Of a DNA stretch of 64,000 nucleotides, positions 1,769 to 41,377 are shown one piece after another. A program made the translations under genes and the position numbers. The notes beneath the pieces are model-generated. The model searched no databases, had not been told where the DNA came from, and worked only from the letters and a program-made list of their open reading frames with translations. The stretch is from positions 6,345 to 70,344 of the forward strand of contig JADHSC010000005.1 in NCBI GenBank assembly GCA_016777125.1. The letters run 5' to 3'. Each line of letters begins with the position of its first letter. The stretch's first letter is position 1. This DNA comes from Candidatus Poseidoniaceae archaeon (GTDB lineage: Archaea > Thermoplasmatota > Poseidoniia > Poseidoniales > Poseidoniaceae).

Positions 1769-4240
1769 ATGCAATCAAAGCGTGCATACGTTCTCATCGG
1801 TCTGCTCATGTGCTCGGTACTGATTCCAGGCATACAAGCTACTGAGGGTAGGGATGCACCACAGTGCCTTTCAGTAACCGAATCAACGCTGTCATCTCAA
1901 GTTGCTGTAGCCAATGGTGCATGCATGCGTTTTGACCTCGGAACCCTCCAACCTGGTGATGTCTATGACTTCTCGATTACCGTCATTGATGACGCACTCG
2001 ACGTTCTTGTTTTCGATGAATCAGGATTGCAGCCTTACCTCTTAGGTCAATCATATCGTTCTACATTCCAACAAGTTCCTTCGACCGAATCTGCAAATGG
2101 TCAATACGAATTTCATTGGAAAGTACCTTCCTCGATCAATGCCAAATCATGGACAGTGATCATCGACAATCTTGCTCATGATGGTGATCAAGGACAAGGT
2201 GACCAAGGTGGTGTTGATGGACGGATTTCCATGACGGTCTCGGAATTAACAGATACTCCATGGACGCCTTATCATGATCTCGTTGGCATCATTCCAGATG
2301 GCCATGTGACTCTTCTGGAGGGAACCTCTTTGCAACTTGAGGAAGGAACAACAATAGCCGTAACTGCTTGGTCCCTCCAAGGATTTGCAGATGTGTACTT
2401 ACAAACTGATTCGATGAATGCAAACTATCTTTCGGGTCAATCAAATGTAGCCCTAACAGGGGCCTCACTTGTTGGTGTTGATGGAACTTCTTCGTTCAGT
2501 TGGGTCGTTCCATCTGCTCTTGCGAATCAACCTCTCAAATTGGTTGTTGATAACACTGAAGATCCTGATGGTCAAGGAGATGGTTCAACGAACCTAAGAG
2601 TAACAATTCGTGTTCAACTCGTTCCTGTCATTCAGGCTCAATTCGTTGCAGAAAACACCACGGTTGCAATGAATACATTGGTTGGATTCGATGCTGCCTC
2701 AACTCCAAATAATCTCGGCCAAATATCACAATATACGTGGGATTTTGATTCCACAATCGATGGTAATGGTGATGGTGACTTCATCAACGACGTCGATGCA
2801 ATTGGCCTTACTTCAGAAGCGCAGTGGACCTCTCCTGGTGAACGAATCGTTACATTAACTGTTCTTGGACAGAGTAGTTTCGATCGTCAAGAACAAACCA
2901 TTACCGTGAATGATATTATCAATCCAGTGCCTCGAATTACCGGAACAACGGCCTCCTCTTCATCTGCTACACCAGTCTCTGGTAGTTGGAGAATCGCTTA
3001 CGCAAACACCCTTGTTTTGACTTGCAATTCAAGTTCGGATGATGATTCAATCTCTTCGTGTTCATGGTCTCTCGATGGTGCTCCTTACAATCAACAGACA
3101 ACGGTTTCCTTCAATTGGAGCACGATTGGAGAACACGTCGTTGGCCTTACTGTCTTTGATGGGAGCGGTAATAGCGCTTCAACACAGGTGGATGTTCGAG
3201 TTGTAGATGGTTCAATACCTGTAATTGATGACTTCTTTGTTTCTCAATTCAAGAACTCACTCGAAGAGGGTCAAATCCAAACGTACTCAATCAACGCAAA
3301 CGATGTTTACGACTCCGCATCAAACCTTCGATATCACTGGGACATCAATCCATCAGAAGATACCGATCAAAACGGAAATCCAACGGATGATCCTGATTAC
3401 ATTGGGCCCAACGTTGATTTGTTATTCGATACAGCGGGGACAAAAACAGTTGTTGTAACGGTCTTTGATGCTTCAAATAATACTGACACTCGAACCTTTA
3501 CAATCGTCGTTGAGGAGTCGGTCGAATCGAGCACAAACTTTGGATTAATCGCCGTAGTTTTGTTCATTTTTGTTGTAACATTGTCAATATCTTTCATTGG
3601 ATACCGTCGCTGGCAGTCCTCAATTGCAGTTGGTTTGTTGACAGGCCGCGGCCTTTCAGACTCTGAAGCGAAGGCACACATGACAATGGTTCGTCAATCT
3701 CAAAAGTTGCCACTCTTTGCTAAAGCCATCCAACTTGCAGGACTTGATGTTGGTGAAGTTGTTACCCAAGATCAACAAGAACAAGCTCGTAAGGAAGCAG
3801 AACTTCAATCGATTTATGGAAATGGAGAAGTCGAAGAAATCCCCCAGGCTCAGTTCGCTCCAAAGAGAGAGATTAGCCAAGCAAGTTCGCAAGCAGCGGC
3901 TGAAGCAGCGGCTCTGTTCTTCGATGACGCCCCCTCCGCCCCTGCACCAGTTATCATCCAAGACCCTGACGATGCTCTCCTTCGAGAGCTAGGGTCGATG
4001 AATGAAAAGCCTTCCCAAACCCCTCAATCCGGTGGTATTCAGTTGCCAGAAAATTTGGCTCCTGCTGTCGAACATCCACTTCCAACTCCTGAAGTTGTGG
4101 AAGTGGAAAAACCATCCAATTTACTCAAAGGCTCTTGCAACAGTTGTTCTTTGAAATTCCAAGTACCTATGCCAGACGGTGTGAATGAAGCAATTGTTGT
4201 GTGTCCATCATGTTCTGAAGAACAACTCTTCCAACGCTAA
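1769..4240 (+). CDS. secreted/membrane-anchored surface protein: signal peptide, PKD-like repeats, single TM, acidic cytoplasmic tail ending in a zinc ribbon
   Basis: Signal peptide MQSKRAYVLIGLLMCSVLIPGIQA. At least three PKD-like repeats (e.g. VVGLTVFDGSGNSAS and TKTVVVTVFDASNNTD). TM helix FGLIAVVLFIFVVTLSISFIGY. C-terminal CNSC-x17-CPSC. Confidence 0.7.
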   Translation: MQSKRAYVLIGLLMCSVLIPGIQATEGRDAPQCLSVTESTLSSQVAVANGACMRFDLGTLQPGDVYDFSITVIDDALDVLVFDESGLQPYLLGQSYRSTFQQVPSTESANGQYEFHWKVPSSINAKSWTVIIDNLAHDGDQGQGDQGGVDGRISMTVSELTDTPWTPYHDLVGIIPDGHVTLLEGTSLQLEEGTTIAVTAWSLQGFADVYLQTDSMNANYLSGQSNVALTGASLVGVDGTSSFSWVVPSALANQPLKLVVDNTEDPDGQGDGSTNLRVTIRVQLVPVIQAQFVAENTTVAMNTLVGFDAASTPNNLGQISQYTWDFDSTIDGNGDGDFINDVDAIGLTSEAQWTSPGERIVTLTVLGQSSFDRQEQTITVNDIINPVPRITGTTASSSSATPVSGSWRIAYANTLVLTCNSSSDDDSISSCSWSLDGAPYNQQTTVSFNWSTIGEHVVGLTVFDGSGNSASTQVDVRVVDGSIPVIDDFFVSQFKNSLEEGQIQTYSINANDVYDSASNLRYHWDINPSEDTDQNGNPTDDPDYIGPNVDLLFDTAGTKTVVVTVFDASNNTDTRTFTIVVEESVESSTNFGLIAVVLFIFVVTLSISFIGYRRWQSSIAVGLLTGRGLSDSEAKAHMTMVRQSQKLPLFAKAIQLAGLDVGEVVTQDQQEQARKEAELQSIYGNGEVEEIPQAQFAPKREISQASSQAAAEAAALFFDDAPSAPAPVIIQDPDDALLRELGSMNEKPSQTPQSGGIQLPENLAPAVEHPLPTPEVVEVEKPSNLLKGSCNSCSLKFQVPMPDGVNEAIVVCPSCSEEQLFQR

Positions 4241-4315
4241 AATCAAGATAAGGAATCAATCGTTGTTTACGCAGTTCGGGGATGGGTTCAGATACCAGTT
4301 CCTTCACCTATATTC

Positions 4316-7300
4316 ATGGTCGAAGAAGCGATTCGTTTGATTCGCCCTGGCCTTAAGCAGCCAAAAAGAGGACGTCTCGCCTTTTTTCTTGTTCTTGTCA
4401 TGCTTATTCCCTTGTTCCAGCCAGTTCAGGCTGATATCACTGTACGGCAAGATGATTTTGACCTCTTAGAGACTCTCTCAGATGTGATGGCATTACAAGA
4501 ATCAAGCGATGATTCTGTTGTTGCAGTTGGTTCGTCAACCTCTGCTTTAGCCTTAGTTGAGGCTGCGAAGCGAGAAAGTCAAGCAGGTGATCCGCTCGAT
4601 GATGCTACGCAATATCTGAATAATGTCGAGTTAAGAGACACGACTCCGCTTGCTGAAGATCACCCGCGTCCGTACGAGATTCTTTTGGATACGAATTCTC
4701 AACCTGATGGTTGGCCAAATAATCTCCTCCAAACCTTATTTTCTCTTGAGGCCATTTCGTTAACAGACCCGCTTGCAGTGGGGATTAACACCTATGCGTT
4801 GTACGTTAATTTCTCAAGCAGAAATTCAGGGCCACAGTTTGAGACTTGGTCCTATGGGACGTTTACAGGTGAATTATTCGTAGGGGCTGATTTGGTTTTA
4901 TTCGAAAATTACATCGATATCGATGGAGATAACGTTGATGACGTTTCAATTTCGCTAACGGTACTTGGTCTGCTTCAACTCAACCAAGGGTTCGGATTTG
5001 AACCCCCATTTGATCCGTTCAACCCGTTTAGTGCAATTCCAGATACGATCTGGCTCCGACCTACATTCCAATGGAAGATTAACCAACTGAACGAGAATGA
5101 TCCCCTTTGGGATGAGATGGCTCACATGGAAATCTCTCTTCTGAAGGGTCTTGCATTTGACTCAGCAGTTCAAGATTCACAATCTTATGCACTTGTTCTT
5201 GACACACGATTGACTCAACCGCCAAGCGATTTCAGAGTCGAAGTTGGAATCCAAGAATTTAGGTTTAGTATCTCGAGCGCTGTCACAAACATTGTTCAAC
5301 TTCTCACGGATTTCATTGGAGGTGGTGCTTTACCAGCAGATGCGTTGACGTTAACATCCGTATCAGCACCATATGCTATCGGAATACGGAATCCTAATTC
5401 AGACGCATCCAATCTCCAAACCGAGTGTGATACGGACTATTATGACGTTATCAACGACCATGATGCAACAAGTGAGCTCCACAAATGTGGATTTGGAGTG
5501 GGAATCGGTTTCATCGAATTCGAGGAACTCGATGTAAACGGCCAAGCAGATATTATTGACATGGGATACATCGATGTTGGATTCCATCCTGAACGAGGTT
5601 CTAACGTATTGCCTGAAGAAGTTGATTTGACGCTAAGAAACGACAACCTTGGAGACAATACGTTCGATACTGTTGAACTGTACAGTGATACGGGGGCTGA
5701 TCTTTGGCTCCATTACTTCGAAGACCGAAGCAACACAATTGAAGGCGGAACCTTTGGAAACGTATCCGATTCTCGATTATGGATACGCGGCATACCTTCT
5801 GGAACACTCCCCCAAGAAGAAATAGATGCCATTTTCACGACAATTGGAGAAGCTCCAGGAAGTGTCAATCTTCCCGGAGATATGCCAGACAGACTTTCAT
5901 TTATTGTTGCGATAAAGAATTTCACTGGAGATTCAACTACAAACCAAAATGATCTCACCCTCCCCATCAATCCGGCAGCGCCACCGACAACACTGATTAT
6001 GATTGCAGGAACTGAACGAATTGATTCATTGACCTATGACTCAACAATGAAGCGCGGTGGCTATGATAACGATGTTAGTTCTATTCGAATATCCGTTTCG
6101 AATCTTCCTGAAGTTCTCGTTTTGAAAGGAAGTTTCCAATTATCCGAGACTGGTGTTTCTCGGGTCAATTTCAACAATCCTAACCTCAATACAATTTCTC
6201 AACTCCTTGACAATGCTCTGTTGACCTTGGTCGAAATTGTACTCGATTTGGGGTCTATACTCAACGGACTTCCTGATGCCATTGTCAGTACTGCTGGAAC
6301 CTCTGGCGGTTCCATCGAAGTCATCTGTTTGACTCAAGTAAAACAAACATGGAACGACGGTTCTGTACGCGGCCCGAGCAGTTTAGGGGAAATTGCACTA
6401 GCCATTGGCAGCAGTGACCATCCTTGGTTCACATCATCCGATCACATTCTCCTGTCCGAAGACACATCCATTGCCACGATCGCAGGAAGAGATGGCCCAG
6501 TCTCTCCTCTGGTCCCAATTGCCATGAGCATCCGTGTTTCAAACATCTCAAGGGTGTTCCAATCCTTTGATGGAATTACAAGCGAGAGGACGCTTGAATT
6601 AATTGGTCAACAGTCAGGCGCCCTCTTGATTGGGCACATCCGTCACAATGGTGATGATCTCGTCAATGTAACGAGCCAATCGGCCCGAATATCGAACCGA
6701 CCAGGCGATTTAACCGTTGTACAAGACCCGAGTAAACTCGTCTATTCTGCAAGTGAGCCGATTGGAACCATCACCTACGGAGGCCAAGAGGGTAAACAAC
6801 GCAATGCCATTCGACTCGAAGGCTTACCATCAGCCTTCCAATTGAATCTGGGTGATTCGGTTGGATTTGCTGCTGATACACCTATCGATTCGATCACGAT
6901 TCAAATGACCAACGCTACAACGCCGTTAACAATGGACGGAGACCATTTCAGATTCTGGGTTAACACAGATACATCAGAGGCTTCACTCAGTGCACGTATT
7001 TCCAACGTCCAGTCTGTTCAACGATTTTCTCCGCTTAATCCAAATGCAACTGGACCGGAAGGAAGCGCACGATATTCCTTGCAAAGACAAACATCAACTC
7101 CGTTCAATATTGTCATGGAAGATGTGAGTAACTATGACGACCCGTTCCTTGGTCTGAACGGAATGATGCGACTTGATCCATTGCCAGCAAATCTAGAAAT
7201 TGTTCTTCCGAGTGATGTTGATTCCAGTGGTATTGAATTACCTGATTTCGGTGAAGGAGAGGGCGTTGAAGCGCTCTCATTCTTCCTCGGCGACGTTGTT

Positions 7301-33798: not shown

Positions 33799-36618
33799 AT
33801 GGCAAGAGGGGCGTATGTGGTCTGCTGTGTATTGCTGATGATGACTTCATTGGTCCCAACCTCTGTGAGTTCATACGATAGCGGTGGCATTCAAGCATCA
33901 GATTCCACTCTCAGTATCATGCCTGCAAGTCCTACGTCTGGTGGTTCAATTACAGGTTCATTGACGCTTTCGAACACGAATTCAGAAAAAGCGTTCGATG
34001 TTGAATATTCATTCTACAAAAACGGAATATCTACAGCCAACCGCCTCATTACAAGCACTGTCAATATCGAAGCTAATGGTTTTGAAATTGTGACGGCACA
34101 ATGGGACAATCTGGTCGAGGGTGAAAACAAACTTTGGGTCACGTATTCCTACAATGGACAAACCGAAGTTGAGTTTTATCATTCCTTTACCGTACTGGGA
34201 TTGCCGAATCTCAGAGTTACAGAAACAATTCTGACTCCAAGCACTGATCTTCATTCTGGCGATATTATTTCACTGAGTGCAAAGGTAAGTAACATCGGCT
34301 CAGTTGACGCTCAAGCATCATATCTTGGAATTAATTACCCTGGTTCGATTGAAGATGTAGAACTTCAAACTCCAGCGATTAATGCCAGCGAATATGCATG
34401 GGTCAACACGACCTTTACCGCACCTGTATCAGGTTCTTACGATCTCATCCTAACTCCAGACGCCCGAGATGAGGTATTGGAATCAACCGAACAAGGAAAA
34501 GATGAAATCGTTCAATTTGTCATTGAACCAAGAATGGATCTATCACATGTTGGCGAGATACTTATTGTGCCCACAGAGGGTTCCCTTACTGGTCCATGGG
34601 CCGTCTCAGGTACGATTGCAAGAGAGTCAGGAGAAGGCACACTTGACGTTCCAATGGTCATTGAACTACGAGAAGGTGCCTCCACTGTCCGTTCGCTCCA
34701 ACCGTTCACCGTAAGTGTCTTTGGAACAGGATATTCTCAACATGCATGGACAACATCGATTGAAAGTGCGAACATTGCTGGATTGAGCAACGGTCAATAT
34801 TCGCTTGTTGCTCGTATTGACCCATTCCAGACGGGTGGGTTTGTGCAAGAGAGTATGGAAAATGACGACCATGTTACAACGTTCACTCTTCCCGAGATAC
34901 CAGACGTTTATGTTGACCCACTTGCTTTACCAAACTTGACTTCTGTCTCAGCTGGTTTCCCAATCGATTGGTCGATGACGGCCACGAATACTGGCGACAT
35001 TTCTGTTGGCGGTAACTTCCTCTATTCATGGGAAGGTCAAGAGTTCCAATCTGGTCTCATCACTCTCCAGTCAGGTAGCAGTTACACCTACACAGTTTCC
35101 TTGTCAACCTTGTTGGGTGCTCATACAGCGGAACTTGATGTTCAATGGCAACCTTCAGTTAATTCATATGATCGAAATCCAACCAATAGTCGTGCTTCAG
35201 GGTCCGTCCTTGTCGAAGCGAATCTGCAACTTGAATGGGATGAGGATACGCAGGTTCTGGTTGACAAAGATGGCGAACTGGCAACCTTCCCACTTGATTC
35301 AGGCGAAGAATACACACTCAGTATTTCTATGAAATCAACCCGAGGGTCAGGCGATGTCACTATTACATGCAAGAACAGTCAGGCAACATGGTCAGTTTCT
35401 GAGATTGTTATTGAAAATCCTGGGGACCGAGAGGAAGTATCCTGTACATTCAAAGCCTCAGGAAAGTTGACAATTGTTCAGTTGGTTCATTCTCCTTCTT
35501 CCACAATGACCGAGACGTTCGAGCGTTCTTACTCAACAGCGTTTATTGATGGTGGAAATGGTGCAAACGAAGAGAATAGCGGTACGGGAACTGCGGTTCT
35601 GATGTTCATTGGAGCACTTGTCCTCATTGGATTCCTCGTCGGTGCAATTCTGCTTACAAGAGACAGAGAAGATGAAGTGGAACGAGATATTTTCAATTAT
35701 TGTCCCTCCTGTGATGGCGAACTTGAAGGCGACGAAAATCGTTGCCCGCATTGTTCGTTCAACCTTCGTAAAGCACGTTCACAGTTCCACGAATGTTCTG
35801 CATGTGGAGAGTCTGTACCTGATCTCATGGAGAATTGTCCATACTGTGGAACAGAGCAAGATGTTCGTTCATATTTCGAGCAACGAGAACGCCGCATCCG
35901 TGAAGTCCCCGAAGAAAAGGAATTGGTTTCACTCCCCGAAGAAGACGAAAACGAAATCGTTAGCGGTACCGAAGATTTCGCTTCTGCTGTCAAAGAATTT
36001 GGGTATGATGAAGATAATCTTGAAGATGAGTGGGATGAGAATGTTGTTGCTGCTGAAGAAGAAGTTACAGCTGCATATGATAGACGGTATGCTGATGAGA
36101 TCTCGATGGAAGATATGACCGATGAGGAAATTGCTGAAATGGAGAATCAGGTCGTTACAACTCTGAAGACTGCAAAGGAAGCATTCGAAGGTCATGATTT
36201 GGATGCATTCCTACCGGATAAAGAGGATCTGAAGACTCTCAAGGACGATGGAACCGACAAGGATGGCGATGCATGGAATACACTCTCTGCAAGCGATGCT
36301 GACATCCGAGGAGACTTGTTCGAAATCACTGGTGAAAAAGGTGTATTGCCTGGCGACAAGGTTGTTGTTGGTATGGGCTTGACAGATAGTTCACTTGCAG
36401 GAAATGAGATCACTGAGGCTTCTCACAATTTCTTAGTTGAAGATGATTCTAAACCACTTTCAACAGATTCGTCTGAACCGAAGAAGGCTGCAAAGCCACG
36501 TCGACGTCCACGCCGAAAGGCAGAATCGGCTAAGGAGACTGCAGATTGTGGCGCCTGTGGTGCAGTCATTGCGGCAGATGCAAAGGAATGCCCAACCTGT
36601 GGTGCAAAGTTCGAATGA
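33799..36618 (+). CDS. surface protein: signal peptide, CARDB-like repeats, TM, cytoplasmic tail with three zinc ribbons
   Basis: Signal peptide VVCCVLLMMTSLVPTSVSS. TM helix TAVLMFIGALVLIGFLVGAILL. Tail carries CPSC-x9-CPHC, CSAC-x9-CPYC and, at the C-terminus, CGAC-x9-CPTC. Confidence 0.7.
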   Translation: MARGAYVVCCVLLMMTSLVPTSVSSYDSGGIQASDSTLSIMPASPTSGGSITGSLTLSNTNSEKAFDVEYSFYKNGISTANRLITSTVNIEANGFEIVTAQWDNLVEGENKLWVTYSYNGQTEVEFYHSFTVLGLPNLRVTETILTPSTDLHSGDIISLSAKVSNIGSVDAQASYLGINYPGSIEDVELQTPAINASEYAWVNTTFTAPVSGSYDLILTPDARDEVLESTEQGKDEIVQFVIEPRMDLSHVGEILIVPTEGSLTGPWAVSGTIARESGEGTLDVPMVIELREGASTVRSLQPFTVSVFGTGYSQHAWTTSIESANIAGLSNGQYSLVARIDPFQTGGFVQESMENDDHVTTFTLPEIPDVYVDPLALPNLTSVSAGFPIDWSMTATNTGDISVGGNFLYSWEGQEFQSGLITLQSGSSYTYTVSLSTLLGAHTAELDVQWQPSVNSYDRNPTNSRASGSVLVEANLQLEWDEDTQVLVDKDGELATFPLDSGEEYTLSISMKSTRGSGDVTITCKNSQATWSVSEIVIENPGDREEVSCTFKASGKLTIVQLVHSPSSTMTETFERSYSTAFIDGGNGANEENSGTGTAVLMFIGALVLIGFLVGAILLTRDREDEVERDIFNYCPSCDGELEGDENRCPHCSFNLRKARSQFHECSACGESVPDLMENCPYCGTEQDVRSYFEQRERRIREVPEEKELVSLPEEDENEIVSGTEDFASAVKEFGYDEDNLEDEWDENVVAAEEEVTAAYDRRYADEISMEDMTDEEIAEMENQVVTTLKTAKEAFEGHDLDAFLPDKEDLKTLKDDGTDKDGDAWNTLSASDADIRGDLFEITGEKGVLPGDKVVVGMGLTDSSLAGNEITEASHNFLVEDDSKPLSTDSSEPKKAAKPRRRPRRKAESAKETADCGACGAVIAADAKECPTCGAKFE

Positions 36619-36788
36619 ACGAAGTAAATTGATTGAATATAACGCCTGTCAGCACTCATAGGGTTCGTCATCGCTTTCGCTCGGTCCGATTTCGCTTCAT
36701 TCAGGCAAACTGTGAGACAGTAATCTCACGTTTGAACGCTTCCCTTTTCGGCGCGCTTTTCATATTCTTGTGTATGCTGGGGGTGTTT

Positions 36789-37337
36789 ATGCAGCAACGT
36801 ACGCTCGCCGCTTTTGTAGCGTTGACAATGTTGCTTGTCTCCTCATCTGGATGCTTAGGCTTGCTTCAGGGAAGAGAGTACATGGAATCCCTTCGAGACG
36901 ATCCAATTGAATCAGAATCCTTTGCTCCGCTTTCAATTGAGCACACATTTGTGAACGTTCAACAAGAAACGTGGGACGAAGATTTCTCTATTGACTCTGC
37001 GGTAACTGAGATATCTGTTTATTTCAAAGCCGCATTCTTTCTTTCCGATTTGACCGATGATCTTGGTCTCGAACCACGATATGTCGATGTTTCAATCAAG
37101 GATTCAAATGGAAATGAGATGTGGTCAAAGAGAACGACTACAACAGAAAGCACCCTTGAAGAAAAAATTGACCCACAAGAGAACGGTAAATTCCTATCAG
37201 GTGATTGGAATGTATTCATTGAAGCAAGCGGAGGTGGTCTAGCAGGTATTGGAGAAGACAGTTTCCTGATGACAATAACCGTTACTCGAACCTGTATTCT
37301 GTTTCCACAAGCAGATGGCGAATGTGTCACTCTGTGA
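36789..37337 (+). CDS. putative lipoprotein
   Basis: MQQRTLAAFVALTMLLVSSSGC has a lipobox-like SSSGC. The upstream in-frame extension to 36633 is not protein-like. The exact start is uncertain. Confidence 0.45.
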   Translation: MQQRTLAAFVALTMLLVSSSGCLGLLQGREYMESLRDDPIESESFAPLSIEHTFVNVQQETWDEDFSIDSAVTEISVYFKAAFFLSDLTDDLGLEPRYVDVSIKDSNGNEMWSKRTTTTESTLEEKIDPQENGKFLSGDWNVFIEASGGGLAGIGEDSFLMTITVTRTCILFPQADGECVTL

Positions 37338-38502
37338 ACAGTGATTGCTCACAAGCATGTCTTCTACTGCAATTCCTGCACTTTCCTTCACGCTCATGAT
37401 TTCGTTTAGCACCGCCTTCGACCATGAGTTTCTGTACTTTTTTGATACTGGTAAGCAGTGAGTTCTTAGCGTGTTGATCCCAAAAGACCTGATGCACATC
37501 TTCCTCACCATACTTTAGAATACCATATGGAGGGGATTTCTTTGTGTTCGTCTCAACAAGGGATATGTAAGCCAGAAGTTGTACTCGATGGGATTGATGA
37601 GGCTTCTTTGGCACACGTCCCGTTTTCTGTTCGACTGGGATGAATTCGCCATCAATAATGACGATTTGATCGGGCCTTCCTCTTAATCCAGTTTCCTCAT
37701 CACGAAGTAATCCACTTGATTCATCATCATCTGAATAGACTAACTGGGTGTCTTCGTCTAACCCAGCACGCCCTCTCTTCTCGATCATTTCATTTTCTGC
37801 AAAGAGTGATTTTTGCAATTGCCAAGTCGCAAGAAATGTCCAAACGAATGCAGTAACGACCAATATGAAACCTGCTTGGCTTCGATTATCAGCTGCTGCT
37901 AGACCGATTGCATGCAGGCCAATGACAATCGTAGCCAACAAGAGTCCGGCTTCGGTTTTCCCACCAGAAAACCAACCTCCAAGGAACCCGATTGGGTTCC
38001 ATGTCGGCTTCAGCCCGGTCGATTCAAAGTTCTTCGATAATGTTTCAATCTCAGAAACAGTAGGTTCCATATTTAGCCAATTTCGCCAGGGTATAACGAT
38101 TGATAGAATTGCGGCTGCTAGAAATGAAACAGACCACATGGACAGGATCTTAGCCAATTCAATTGGAGCATTCATCAAATCATCGATGTAGACAAAAGCA
38201 ACTGCATCAATTGCAAAAGCAATAATGATTCCATACCACCATGACCAGATGAGGAGTTCTCGCCGTAATTTGATGAGCGAAGTTTGGAATTCATTCATAC
38301 CTTCATGAATTTGTTTATGTTTTTCCATACCAATGGTGATGGCTTCACCCACGCCGGCTGCTCCTTCCTTCGCTAGTCGCCATGAAACAGGGCAGTATGT
38401 ATAGCGCTCGAGTTCGCTTGCGCTTACAGGTAATGGGTTTCCATTCGAATCGAGGTAAAACCCATCAGGGCCTTCGCTTCCCTCTGCAAATGTGACCCCC
38501 AT
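37327..38502 (-). CDS. Cas4/RecB-family PD-(D/E)xK nuclease with Fe-S Cys cluster, interrupted by a four-helix transmembrane insertion
   Basis: N-terminal ERYTYCP Cys motif. Four hydrophobic helices of 20-24 aa. Then GRPDQIVIIDGEFIPVEQKTG (D...ExK), QLLAYISLVE (QxxxY), and a C-terminal C-x2-C-x5-C (CRNCSRRHAC). Confidence 0.6.
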   Translation of the reverse strand: MGVTFAEGSEGPDGFYLDSNGNPLPVSASELERYTYCPVSWRLAKEGAAGVGEAITIGMEKHKQIHEGMNEFQTSLIKLRRELLIWSWWYGIIIAFAIDAVAFVYIDDLMNAPIELAKILSMWSVSFLAAAILSIVIPWRNWLNMEPTVSEIETLSKNFESTGLKPTWNPIGFLGGWFSGGKTEAGLLLATIVIGLHAIGLAAADNRSQAGFILVVTAFVWTFLATWQLQKSLFAENEMIEKRGRAGLDEDTQLVYSDDDESSGLLRDEETGLRGRPDQIVIIDGEFIPVEQKTGRVPKKPHQSHRVQLLAYISLVETNTKKSPPYGILKYGEEDVHQVFWDQHAKNSLLTSIKKVQKLMVEGGAKRNHEREGKCRNCSRRHACEQSLFTE

Positions 38503-38624
38503 ATATTCAATTTAAGACTCATCTATCTTGATATCTTCGCATACAATCCCATCTTTCCGGGTGGGGAGATACTGCGAAGCGGTTAAGAAGAGGCTTTAGG
38601 TCGGTTGCTTGCTGAGGCAACAAT

Positions 38625-39233
38625 ATGTCGGAAGAAACAGGTCTTTTGATTCCACTGGAACTATACGAAGAGACTGGTGTAAACATCGGTACAAAACAGA
38701 AGAGTGCGGACATGGGACGCTTCATTGATTCCGTCAATTCTGATGGTCTTTACCTCCTAAATGTGAACGCTACAGATACCCGCATTCGCATCATCGCATC
38801 ATTCCTGAACCAATATGATGCATCCCGCATTATGGTCGTCTCCGCACGACAATACGGGCAGAGACCTGCTCGTATGTTTGCAGAAGCAATCGGAGCCCTT
38901 TCCGCTGTTGGACGTTTCATTCCTGGAAGCCTAACAAACCCAGCACTTCGCTCATACAAAGAGCCAAACGTCTTGTTCGTAACAGATCCTGCATCCGACC
39001 AGCAATCACTCCGTGAAGCAGTTAACACAGGTCTACCAATCGTTGGACTTGTCGATGCAAACAACAAGTTGCGAAACGTTGACGTTGCACTTCCTGCTAA
39101 CAACAAGAGTCGACACTCTCTCGCTCTGATTTACTGGCTCCTCTCCAGAGAAGTCCTCAAACTACGTGGCGAAACCACAGATGAGGCATGGGCAGAAGCA
39201 AATGATCTCGAAGAGTGGAAGTCAACTTTCTGA
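38625..39233 (+). CDS. rps2: 30S ribosomal protein S2 (uS2)
   Basis: Motifs FIPGSLTNP and VDANNKLRNVDVALPANNKSRHSLALIYWLL are archaeal uS2 signatures. Confidence 0.85.
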   Translation: MSEETGLLIPLELYEETGVNIGTKQKSADMGRFIDSVNSDGLYLLNVNATDTRIRIIASFLNQYDASRIMVVSARQYGQRPARMFAEAIGALSAVGRFIPGSLTNPALRSYKEPNVLFVTDPASDQQSLREAVNTGLPIVGLVDANNKLRNVDVALPANNKSRHSLALIYWLLSREVLKLRGETTDEAWAEANDLEEWKSTF

Positions 39234-40262
39234 TTCAGCCTTTGGCTGCAAGAAGTTCGAAATCGCTTGAGCGGATTCGTCTACATCTGATAACTCATGC
39301 ATGAGTGTTCGAACAGACTTCGCTCCAGGCAATCCCTTTGAGAATGCAATAGCGTGACGCTGCATTGATTGCTTAGCAAGTCCAGTTGTTTCTCTACAAA
39401 GTTCAACATATCGATCCCAACACCATTTTCGGCTCGCAAATGCCTTTGATGTTTCACTCATGAACTCCCATGAATGTTCATGCAACTGTACCCATGGTAA
39501 TTCAGATTCATCCATCCAACCCAATCCTACTTTGATCTGTCCGAAAACATCGGGCCGCCCAATAGCAGCTCTTCCAACCATAAGCCCAGATGCATTTGTC
39601 AATTCAAGACATCGTTGAGCGCTCTCAGCATCAGTGATGTCACCATTTGCTACAACTGGGATGTCGACAGCACCGACTGCACTCTGTATCGTCTGCCAAT
39701 CCGCAATGCCAGAGTAGCGTTGTCGCAGAGTTCGTCCATGAATACACAATCGCTGAGCACCGACTTTTTCCAGAGATTGACAAATATCAACAGCATTATT
39801 TGGTCCCTGACCAGTTCCTAGACGCATTTTTGCTGTTACTGGTATGTCGATTGCATCAACAATATGTTCAACCATCGAAACAAGTTTCTGCGGTTCACCC
39901 ATCAATGCAGCACCAGCACAAATATTGGTAACTTTTGGAGCAGGACACCCAAAATTAAGATCGATGACATCTGCACTTTCCTGAAGCATTGATGCTGCTG
40001 TGACCATATCATCCATCTCTCCTCCAAATATTTGAGGGATAAAGGGGGTTTCTCTTGGATCAGATTCCATCTTTCTCCATGAAGTGGTTGCTTCTCGACT
40101 CAAGGCTGTACTGTTGGTGAATTCAGTAATGGTGATATCAGCGCCACATTCTTTGGCTAATAGACGATAGGGAAGGTCAGAGACTCCAGCCATAGGGGCA
40201 AGATAGAGGGGTCTTTCTTCACCCGACCAAGGTTCGAAAACGTCGAATCCAATGGTCATCAT
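39222..40262 (-). CDS. tRNA-dihydrouridine synthase (Dus family) with C-terminal extension
   Basis: LAPMAGVSDLPYR and IDLNFGCPAPKV (FMN/TIM-barrel Dus motifs). Confidence 0.8.
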   Translation of the reverse strand: MMTIGFDVFEPWSGEERPLYLAPMAGVSDLPYRLLAKECGADITITEFTNSTALSREATTSWRKMESDPRETPFIPQIFGGEMDDMVTAASMLQESADVIDLNFGCPAPKVTNICAGAALMGEPQKLVSMVEHIVDAIDIPVTAKMRLGTGQGPNNAVDICQSLEKVGAQRLCIHGRTLRQRYSGIADWQTIQSAVGAVDIPVVANGDITDAESAQRCLELTNASGLMVGRAAIGRPDVFGQIKVGLGWMDESELPWVQLHEHSWEFMSETSKAFASRKWCWDRYVELCRETTGLAKQSMQRHAIAFSKGLPGAKSVRTLMHELSDVDESAQAISNFLQPKAESES

Positions 40263-41377
40263 TCATCGCCTATTGTCAACACTTCTTCGATCATGTCACC
40301 AACTCGGCGAATTCTTCGAAGAACTCGATCTAATCGAACAATGACATTTTGTTTTGCTATATCTGGCGACTCTCCAATCATTCTGTAGCCGAGAGGCAAT
40401 CGCCCCCCAAGTAAATTCAGAAGCAGCATTTGGTCGGTTGACCCGATATCATTCATTGCAGTTTCAACAAGTTCAATCGTCAGCTTTCCCTTTGCTAAGG
40501 GCTTGAGTAATGAATCATGTTGTCCTTCAGGAATCAAGCGCATGAATCCTCCTTTCTTCAACATCCAGTCTTCTCCGCGACGTTGATGTTGGGTTACCAT
40601 GGCCGACCAGAGCGTCATAGGAAGTCGATCAGTTCGCGGAATTCGTTCGATAAGTCCACATGTTCTGAATCGTTCAAACATCCGTCCTAAACGTGCCTTT
40701 TGTCCAGGTATTGCTTCATCTGCATCATCCAATGAAATCGGTGTGTCAGATTCAAGGAGCATCTTAAACAATCGTTCAGAAATTGAACCTTCACGCAATT
40801 CATCACCTGGTCGTTCACCTAACATTCCTAAATCGGCCATCCATTGGGTGAGAACGCTTGCCCCTGCTTCTTCGTTTGGTGGTCGATAATCAACGATTGC
40901 GAGTGTAAGCGGGAGTGGTGATTCTTCAGGTAATTCGTTCGGTAAACGCTCTCCTGTTCTTTTCCAAAAGGCGTCAATACGATCCATCTTCTGTTCAATC
41001 ATTAGCCGGTATTGGGCAGAACAAAGTTCCAACGCCTGAGTTAATCCTCCTCCTCGAAGCATGTAACGCCTCCAGCCTTTTCCTTCATTTGCGAAGGTAA
41101 GTAAACCGGAGTCGATCAATCGAGTGAGATGATGATTCAAAGCAGCAGGTGTCATTGCTAATTCATCAGCAAGCATTTGAGCATCCCATGAATCTCCTGG
41201 ATTTGGAAGAATATGATCTCGAAGGAGTCGATGTATTGGGGAGGCTGAACCATAATCGGCAGTTGCTTCGCCTTTTCTGCGAACGAAACAAAAGGACTCA
41301 ACCAACCAACCAACCAATCGGTCAATCGAGCGGTCGCTCGTCGGCATGGGTATCTCGTCCAACCGTACATTGAGCAT
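40259..41377 (-). CDS. winged-helix (wHTH) domain protein, putative transcriptional regulator
   Basis: ADELAMTPAALNHHLTRLIDSGLL is a typical HTH recognition helix. A second wHTH-like region occurs later in the protein. The start is uncertain. Confidence 0.5.
   Translation of the reverse strand: MLNVRLDEIPMPTSDRSIDRLVGWLVESFCFVRRKGEATADYGSASPIHRLLRDHILPNPGDSWDAQMLADELAMTPAALNHHLTRLIDSGLLTFANEGKGWRRYMLRGGGLTQALELCSAQYRLMIEQKMDRIDAFWKRTGERLPNELPEESPLPLTLAIVDYRPPNEEAGASVLTQWMADLGMLGERPGDELREGSISERLFKMLLESDTPISLDDADEAIPGQKARLGRMFERFRTCGLIERIPRTDRLPMTLWSAMVTQHQRRGEDWMLKKGGFMRLIPEGQHDSLLKPLAKGKLTIELVETAMNDIGSTDQMLLLNLLGGRLPLGYRMIGESPDIAKQNVIVRLDRVLRRIRRVGDMIEEVLTIGDE

Follow-up and report, generated by a model that had tools for sequence, protein, structure and literature searches.

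The gene at positions 37327–38502 (reverse strand) of a 64,000-nucleotide stretch of DNA from Candidatus Poseidoniaceae archaeon (assembly GCA_016777125.1, contig JADHSC010000005.1, positions 6,345–70,344; hereafter the window, meaning the whole stretch analysed) is best explained as encoding a membrane-integral nuclease of the Cas4 family that acts independently of CRISPR, an explanation that we consider probable as a whole. We hold the membrane-integral architecture and the independence from CRISPR, taken by themselves, with high confidence; a specific housekeeping role in DNA processing is put forward tentatively, as a proposal that may well prove wrong. The known Cas4-family nucleases are soluble and take part in CRISPR adaptation, DNA-end resection and viral replication; with a conserved membrane-embedded clade, the family would gain a new place in the cell and probably also a new role. 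Poseidoniales (marine group II) rank among the most abundant archaea of the plankton and none has been cultured, which makes any prediction of a conserved function useful.

The open reading frame (ORF) was intact, with an ATG start and 391 codons plus a stop, and its product was 100 % identical over its full length to the database entry 'Dna2/Cas4 domain-containing protein [Candidatus Poseidoniaceae archaeon]' (P0001). The ORF list, this identical protein and matches to Cas4 models of Pfam, NCBIfam and PADLOC define it as a complete gene. A preliminary description, made from the letters of the window, had listed a Cas4-type N-terminal cysteine, four hydrophobic helices, the D...ExK and QxxxY motifs and a terminal C-x2-C-x5-C, and all of these were found in that order. 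The N-terminal cysteine is C37, within YTYCP (aa 34–38), and the motif-I His of the Cas4 family is H62; the segment GRPDQIVIIDGEFIPVEQKTG at aa 275–295 contains D278, E291 and K293, QLLAY at aa 308–312 contains the Q308 and Y312 of QxxxY, and CRNCSRRHAC at aa 375–384 (37351–37380, reverse strand) forms C375-x2-C378-x5-C384, so that the catalytic set of the family (motif-I His, D, ExK and QxxxY) is complete. No more than four cysteines are present (C37, C375, C378 and C384), one N-terminal and three in the C-terminal CX2CX5C, which are positioned for a [4Fe-4S] cluster, and binding of this iron-sulfur (Fe-S) cluster is accordingly a prediction from their spacing. As judged from its residues, the nuclease is intact and probably active.

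Profile searches placed the protein among PD-(D/E)XK nucleases. At aa ~271–385 it matched both PDDEXK_1 (PF12705, E value 3e-11) and Cas_Cas4 (PF01930, 1e-9) of Pfam, the best E value among the PADLOC Cas4 models was 3e-20, and the NCBIfam cas4 model (TIGR00372) matched at 6e-18, scoring 65.3 bits against a cutoff of 65 over model positions 55–179 only. When a profile of 33 diverse family members was used instead of the single protein, it matched the solved Cas4 structures 8d3l (1.9e-8), 4r5q (1.2e-7) and 4ic1 (1.1e-6), and in this search the N-terminal segment, with the cysteine and the GxxxH helix, aligned weakly (8.1 bits) to the Cas4 N-terminus of 8d3l and 4r5q. AlphaFold2 (AF2) run on the single sequence gave a predicted local distance difference test score (pLDDT) of 45, and the model used here was obtained from the 33-sequence alignment (pLDDT 84.2, predicted template-modelling score 0.77). 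The best Foldseek matches to this model in the PDB were type I-C Cas4 8d3l (E value 3e-4, template-modelling score 0.51 on the target), Dna2 5eax, the Geobacter Cas4/Cas1 fusion 7mi5, MGME1, AdnAB, ACE1 and Exo5, and the predicted fold is that of Fe-S/RecB-like end-processing nucleases. The placement in the Cas4/RecB clade put forward in the preliminary description was thus borne out by both profile and fold searches, and on its sequence we assign the gene to the Cas4 family, within the Cas4/Dna2/AddB clade.

The two pieces of the nuclease fold were conserved together. The N-terminal piece (aa 26–80; 38263–38427, reverse strand), delimited by conservation, the weak Cas4 alignment and AF2 helices 28–36, 38–45 and 53–109, carries the putative Fe-S ligand C37 and the motif-I helix G58...H62; the C-terminal piece (aa 250–391; 37330–37755, reverse strand), delimited by the Pfam, NCBIfam and PADLOC alignments, invariant columns and Foldseek, carries D278, E291-x-K293, S304-H305, Q308-x3-Y312, R367-N368-H369 and the cysteine cluster. 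Across the 33 diverse members, Y36, C37, P38, G58, G275, P277, D278, P289, K293, P298, S304, H305, Q308, G327, Y331, R367, H369, C375, C378 and C384 were invariant, and H62, E291, Y312 and N368 were conserved in at least 90 %. The C-x2-C-x5-C cluster was likewise invariant in 60 non-identical Poseidoniales orthologues, in which the catalytic and cluster-binding residues were kept in 55–60 of the 60. Since these residues are invariant or nearly so, they are under selection.

The same comparison bears on the possibility that the Cas4 fold has been kept for DNA binding rather than catalysis, for example as a tether that attaches the chromosome or a plasmid to the membrane. A subclade of four of the 60 Poseidoniales species (L046, L049, L067 and L070) carries H62N, H66S and D278N together, which replaces both metal ligands, yet retains E291, K293, Q308, Y312, the four cysteines, the membrane helices and the position beside rpS2 described below, which speaks for such a tether. 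In this lineage either the metal site has been remodelled or the protein is kept for a non-catalytic function, as far as the substitutions indicate. In contrast, the full catalytic set was intact in 55 of the 60 Poseidoniales sequences, the window gene included, and in all 33 diverse members, which argues for selection for catalysis in most lineages, and we regard a non-catalytic tether as a very improbable account of the window gene.

What distinguishes the protein from canonical Cas4 is the region between the two pieces. A Kyte-Doolittle scan (19-residue window, threshold 1.6) yielded four hydrophobic segments, at aa 83–110, 116–139, 183–205 and 208–229, in agreement with the number first claimed, and canonical Cas4 is free of such segments. 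AF2 placed helices at 53–109, 113–136, 181–203 and 207–246. From hydropathy and these helices we delimited four transmembrane (TM) helices, all on the reverse strand: TM1 at aa 83–106 (38185–38256; also supported by conservation), with an intramembrane D99; TM2 at aa 116–138 (38089–38157), which closes a first hairpin; TM3 at aa 184–204 (37891–37953; also supported by conservation), with H197; and TM4 at aa 210–232 (37807–37875). In the model, the helix bearing H62 is continuous with TM1, and TM4 likewise leads back to the nuclease domain with no break in the helix. Between TM2 and TM3 lies a predicted cytoplasmic loop (aa 139–183; 37954–38088, reverse strand), defined by alignment and conservation, which ends in a conserved F-GGW-x3-G-x2-E motif; in the family alignment this loop is long in Poseidoniales only, nine of its positions are at least 95 % conserved, and AF2 confidence is low at 150–180.

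The insertion falls between the motif-I helix and the strand leading to D278, so that H62 and D278 are about 215 residues apart as compared with about 40 in solved Cas4. Deletion of aa 81–232 in silico gave a spliced protein with a single PF12705 match, spanning its residues 26–233 and profile positions 2–247 of 247. The excised 152 residues alone matched no Pfam or NCBIfam family, and their PDB matches, to designed TM hairpin bundles and ABC-transporter helices, were set aside as reflecting composition only. When hairpin 1 (aa 76–142) was aligned with hairpin 2 (aa 178–236), a comparison that also supports the assignment of TM2, profile-profile hhalign gave a probability of 97.7 % and an E value of 2e-12, with consensus strings much alike, from which we read the insert as two tandem copies of one TM hairpin.

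Lysine and arginine made up 0.222 of the residues in loops on the nuclease side and 0.089 on the opposite side, and this positive-inside bias places both nuclease pieces in the cytoplasm. The predicted topology is therefore N-in/C-in, with four TM helices and cytoplasmic nuclease halves; an Fe-S enzyme would require a cytoplasmic location. The possibility that the hydrophobic segments are buried core was weighed against these data, and the segments behave as TM helices, being absent from canonical Cas4, even in number, flanked by charges that follow the positive-inside rule, and present as one helix per half in the two-gene relatives described below.

The membrane helices came close to the nuclease in conservation. 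Over the 60 Poseidoniales orthologues, mean column conservation was 0.64–0.73 in the TM helices and 0.77 in the nuclease; D99 and H197 were invariant in all 60, as was the GGW-x3-G-x2-E motif directly ahead of TM3, and the positions equivalent to D99 and H197 were mostly Asn in other members. Such conservation goes far beyond the need of a simple anchor and, together with the titratable nature of D99 and H197, the continuous helices 53–109 and 207–246 and the expansion to four hairpins in some lineages, is consistent with a nuclease or sensor gated by the state of the membrane, in which membrane potential, pH or lipid packing would shift H62 and so switch the nuclease on or off, in a stress response or an abortive one. 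This argument is purely structural and drawn from a predicted model, polar residues in TM helices can merely serve helix packing or oligomerization, and no associated sensor or effector gene was found; we therefore regard gating of this kind as distinctly unlikely.

Relatives of the window protein were collected with phmmer in an exhaustive search over 1.84 billion cluster representatives, which returned 884 relatives at an E value of at most 1e-3 and 63 at an E value of at most 1e-30. TM helices were counted in the best 150 representatives. Full-length proteins with two TM helices (17 of the 150) had about 260–285 aa, those with four (30) about 320–410 aa and those with eight (13) about 500–600 aa, and all three classes had [YFW]x[YFW]CP at the N-terminus and CX2CX5C at the C-terminus. 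A few relatives gave counts of 1, 3 or 7, which are probably threshold misses. With a hidden Markov model (HMM) of the hairpin, one unit was found in the 2-TM proteins and two in 4-TM proteins of short length, and as many as four were found in those with 8 TM helices. When one genome of each GTDB species was scanned, 386 genomes had a confirmed relative, and the 80 best loci listed all belonged to Thermoplasmatota (Poseidoniales, other Thermoplasmata, the DHVE2 group and Methanomassiliicoccales). A membrane-anchored Cas4 had been called unusual in the preliminary description, which had also suggested searching relatives for the same fusion and its neighbours; the architecture is real and absent from canonical Cas4, but it is no one-off, as it defines a large family. 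As the number of TM helices is even, both nuclease pieces would stay in the cytoplasm and reassemble as one catalytic domain.

The size of the family also settles whether the ORF is an artefact, that is, a misassembled or miscalled fusion of fragments of a membrane protein and a Cas4, or a Cas4 whose helices are buried core. No evidence in support of an artefact was found. The architecture recurs in more than 1000 homologues from independent assemblies and in the 386 species-level genomes, the ORF is intact with residues conserved throughout, and independent split genes break exactly at the hairpin, so that recurrence and conservation effectively refute it.

Some members of the family departed from the common plan. 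P0122 (481 aa, 49 % identity) is longer by ~90 residues in the loop that joins TM1 to TM2, which is predicted to be extracellular, so that outside loops can take added domains. In several multi-TM relatives (P0184, P0208, P0224, P0223 and P0248) the called protein apparently starts without the N-terminal Cys/His segment, and these may be additional split or fused forms or proteins whose starts were miscalled; P0223 is, moreover, extended at its C-terminus by a segment that contains two TRAM-like repeats.

A further 17 of the best 150 representatives had about 170 aa and consisted of one N-terminal TM helix and the C-terminal part of the nuclease only. Inspection of their loci revealed two-gene forms in Anaerolineae and some archaea, in which an N-half of 74–90 aa carries the cysteine, the His helix and one TM helix, and the remainder of the nuclease follows a single TM helix in a C-half of 170–184 aa. 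In L090 (positions 4753–5555), an archaeal context with aS21 and EF-1-beta, a 90-aa ORF, ISASEISQYVYCP...GIDAHEK followed by one TM helix, runs into the beginning of the gene for the 184-aa C-half, and the same overlapping pair was found in L092 (3780–4528), L094 (3765–4516) and L095 (4771–5513). In L096 an unrelated gene of 209 aa stands between the N-half (4058–4300) and the C-half (5001–5516), which indicates that the halves are separate polypeptides and not products of frameshift errors. The named members of the split group came from Anaerolineales or Anaerolineaceae and were 40–44 % identical to single-chain 2-TM proteins of Thermoplasmata. The break falls exactly at the turn of the hairpin, and the existence of one-chain and two-chain forms cut at this point implies that the membrane helices pair and bring the halves together.

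In Anaerolineae the split genes had a recurrent context (L095, 3338–8717; L092, 2427–4528; L096, 4058–9266), with the order SSB, DUF3467, a weak translin-like gene, N-half, C-half, NAD kinase, zf-B_box and an SMC_N protein of RecN size, and this order was kept between members that are only about 46 % identical.

The genomic position of the window gene was then compared with that of its relatives. It lies divergent from rpS2 (38625–39233, forward strand), with which it shares a 122-bp intergenic region (38503–38624), and convergent with the ORF at 36633–37337, which it overlaps by 11 nt; it is thus monocistronic, as originally described. On the basis of gene tables and tblastn of S2 and dihydrouridine synthase (Dus) on all fetched loci, rpS2 adjoined the nuclease gene divergently, with Dus beyond it, in all 64 Poseidoniales loci recovered, down to 43 % identity. 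Three contigs in bacterial metagenome-assembled genomes (L021, Salipiger bermudensis; L048, Rhodobiaceae; L056, Verrucomicrobiales) carry a Poseidoniales gene with the same rpS2/Dus synteny, at 46–72 % identity to the query, and are probably binning contaminants.

The statement that the window holds no CRISPR array or cas genes was confirmed from three sides: Tandem Repeats Finder detected no CRISPR array in the window, none of the 37 other window proteins matched a Cas model of PADLOC at an E value of at most 1e-5, and ten further neighbouring proteins, scanned with Pfam only, had housekeeping domains. Around the gene were a KH-domain protein, CARDB surface proteins, helix-turn-helix (HTH) regulators, fatty-acid oxidation genes, an NADH dehydrogenase operon, RIO1 and eIF-1A, and the gene tables of related loci listed no cas genes. 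The gene accordingly resembles a Solo-Cas4, a Cas4 homologue outside any cas neighbourhood, and differs from CRISPR-associated Cas4 both in having no cas1, cas2 or array adjacent and in its product, which with 391 aa and four predicted TM helices departs from the compact, soluble, single-domain form of about 170–220 aa that can dock onto Cas1-Cas2. One could still suppose that the protein is a true Cas4 acting in trans as an adaptation factor for a CRISPR-Cas locus in another part of the genome, as its score above the cas4 equivalog cutoff and the annotation 'CRISPR-associated exonuclease Cas4' in several sources would suggest. The lack of an array or cas gene in the 64 kb and in the gene tables of related loci, together with a conserved housekeeping synteny that is inconsistent with membership of a cas operon, makes this extremely unlikely. 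We know of no other adaptation-module gene with membrane helices, and none was found here.

A role in defence, which the preliminary description had suggested next to DNA uptake and membrane-associated DNA processing, deserves more weight. An exonuclease tethered at the inner face of the membrane could degrade linear foreign DNA of viruses or plasmids, as RecBCD and AddAB do with phage DNA, and the tether would protect the chromosome. Cas4-family enzymes (Cas4, Dna2, AddB) act on free DNA ends and the fold matches them, the membrane location is predicted, and both Cas4 and DruK nuclease models of PADLOC matched. In addition, one 4-TM member (P0136) lies inside a type IV pilus-like cluster (L007, 535–8698; L008 and L083 represent the same lineage) with two Peptidase_A24 genes (prepilin peptidases), a T2SSE ATPase, a 664-aa protein and a DUF87/HerA-type ATPase. 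Most defence genes, however, are variable and borne on islands, whereas this single-copy gene is fixed beside rpS2 among housekeeping flanks in every Poseidoniales locus examined, and no defence island accompanies it. No relative was found in the 2.9 million viral contigs scanned, a scan that likewise gave no obvious counter-defence signal. No partner gene is conserved across lineages, and the pilus context occurs in one species only. Taken together, these results make a defence function unlikely.

Two candidate partners were tried and rejected. The pilus/DUF87 cluster was considered as a DNA-transfer partner, and tblastn placed it in a single species (L007, L008 and L083); a DpnI-like gene was also noted near the cluster in L007. 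In Methanomassiliicoccales-like loci, a gene for a secreted LTD-PLD-PKD protein stands directly upstream on the same strand, together with the genes for TIM and FBP aldolase. This protein (650–909 aa, C-terminally anchored, with two Lamin-tail, two PLD-like and one PKD domain; gene −1 of match 8001–8984 in L088, and also in L074, L080, L081, L082 and L086) could be an extracellular nuclease or phospholipase; as an operon partner it was dismissed, since it travels with TIM and FBP aldolase, which we read as lineage synteny. A functional partner conserved across lineages was looked for and none was found. Elsewhere in the family, rpL15e adjoins the nuclease gene in two 8-TM Thermoplasmata lineages, and a 2-TM member lies near pyruvate:ferredoxin oxidoreductase genes.

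The single-copy, fixed-position housekeeping synteny and the SSB/RecN-like context in Anaerolineae lead us to favour DNA maintenance at the membrane over defence. As we picture the membrane-integral nuclease, its catalytic domain would be reassembled directly beneath the membrane and rigidly joined to it through the continuous helices, and in the two-gene forms two membrane helices would hold the halves of the enzyme together. As a housekeeping enzyme it may process single strands or ends of DNA on the inner side of the membrane, with recombination or repair of membrane-proximal DNA and the trimming of DNA entering the cell as candidate roles, and tethering could confine a nuclease that is potentially toxic, so that most of the chromosome stays out of its reach. 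A bolder variant gives the hairpins a function beyond anchoring: they might form a conserved membrane module, with D99 and H197 in the bilayer, that is joined rigidly to the catalytic His by the continuous helices, so that the state of the membrane controls activity, or a ring under a membrane passage that processes DNA as it crosses, and a natural Cas4-type enzyme built from two polypeptides by TM pairing would then be seen for the first time in the two-gene forms. We consider this improbable.

Several observations weigh against the explanation that we favour. Membrane insertion was deduced from hydropathy, the charge rule and AF2, and the composition that TM helices have in common may inflate both the hhalign and the HMM scores of the hairpins. 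The TIGR00372 equivalog match passes its cutoff barely and is limited to the C-terminal two-thirds of the model. The H62N/H66S/D278N subclade, at any rate, may be under selection for something other than catalysis. Named homologues all come from metagenome-assembled genomes. With respect to the role, ribosomal-protein neighbours are uninformative on function, the housekeeping synteny counts against a mobile defence island and is no proof of a role in repair, and the SSB/RecN context of Anaerolineae is perhaps not transferable to archaea.

Comparison with known systems helps to separate what is familiar in the protein from what is not. Cas4 (COG1468/PF01930/TIGR00372; SSO0001 4IC1, Pcal_0546 4R5Q, type I-C 8D3L) provides its best sequence-profile and fold matches and has the same His helix, D, ExK, QxxxY and C...CX2CX5C. 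The window protein differs in the ~150 residues (four TM helices and the loop) inserted between motifs I and II, which bring it to 391 aa as compared with about 170–220 aa, in its fixed place beside rpS2 rather than near cas1/cas2 or an array, and in motifs of its own clade, PxxPxxSH ahead of QxxxY and RNH ahead of the cysteine cluster. Like the Solo-Cas4 genes (Hudaiberdiev et al. 2017, PMC5704561; M. mazei, Rentz et al. 2025, PMC12501428), it is an archaeal Cas4-family gene outside CRISPR-cas loci; the described solo-Cas4s are soluble, whereas this clade is predicted to be membrane-integral and includes split two-gene forms. The M. mazei Solo-Cas4 binds [4Fe-4S], forms high oligomers, degrades both linear and supercoiled DNA as a metal-dependent DNase and retards growth on overexpression (PMC12501428), which fits the idea that such nucleases need restraint and that tethering may limit their toxicity.

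The nuclease domains of the end-processing enzymes Dna2, AddB/AdnB, Exo5 and MGME1 belong to the same fold class (Foldseek 5eax, 6ppu, 7lwa and 8xa9). A role in end or flap processing is plausible, and in Anaerolineae the relatives are flanked by SSB and a RecN-like gene; unlike the enzymes named, the window protein has no fused helicase or partner domain, and the membrane insertion is unique to its clade. EndA, NucA and the nuclease domain of ComEC are membrane-held nucleases that act where DNA crosses, with catalytic domains that face outward or line the channel. They have the membrane in common with the window nuclease, but their folds are unrelated, its Fe-S nuclease is predicted to be cytoplasmic, and its family is linked to pilus or uptake genes only in the one species mentioned above.

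The catalytic domain is familiar; the membrane-hairpin insertion, the series of one, two and four copies and the natural two-gene split are unfamiliar. The word 'transmembrane' is absent from the Cas4 phylogenomics study (PMC5704561), a PD-(D/E)XK survey treats TM elements in general terms and not this architecture, and the JCVI-syn3.0 paper deals with another Cas4-like clade that is fused to a DEDD nuclease and has no TM helices. Full-text literature searches, whose coverage is incomplete so that a prior description is possible, found no publication on a TM-interrupted or membrane-assembled Cas4, and the family of membrane-bound Cas4 relatives unlinked to CRISPR is apparently undescribed. The hairpin series and the split genes are a ready-made set for studying how membrane insertion is tolerated and how an enzyme is reassembled by TM pairing. 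Relatives of the window protein are named 'Cas4', 'CRISPR-associated exonuclease Cas4', 'Dna2/Cas4 domain-containing' or 'hypothetical' in databases, and the label 'CRISPR-associated Cas4' is misleading where genomes are scored for CRISPR content.

Three neighbours of the nuclease gene in the window, all in conserved synteny, had features of their own. The ORF at 33799–36618 (forward strand, 939 aa) encodes a signal-like segment at the N-terminus, followed by a CARDB domain and a TM helix around aa 600, and beyond these, on the predicted cytoplasmic side, several zinc ribbons and an acidic tail, an unusual combination of surface protein and zinc ribbons. The convergent ORF at 36633–37337 (forward strand, 234 aa) matches no Pfam family and encodes a probable membrane or secreted protein. 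The ORF at 40259–41377 (reverse strand, 372 aa) likewise falls in no Pfam family and gave a weak match to a Csa3-like HTH (E value 0.0035).

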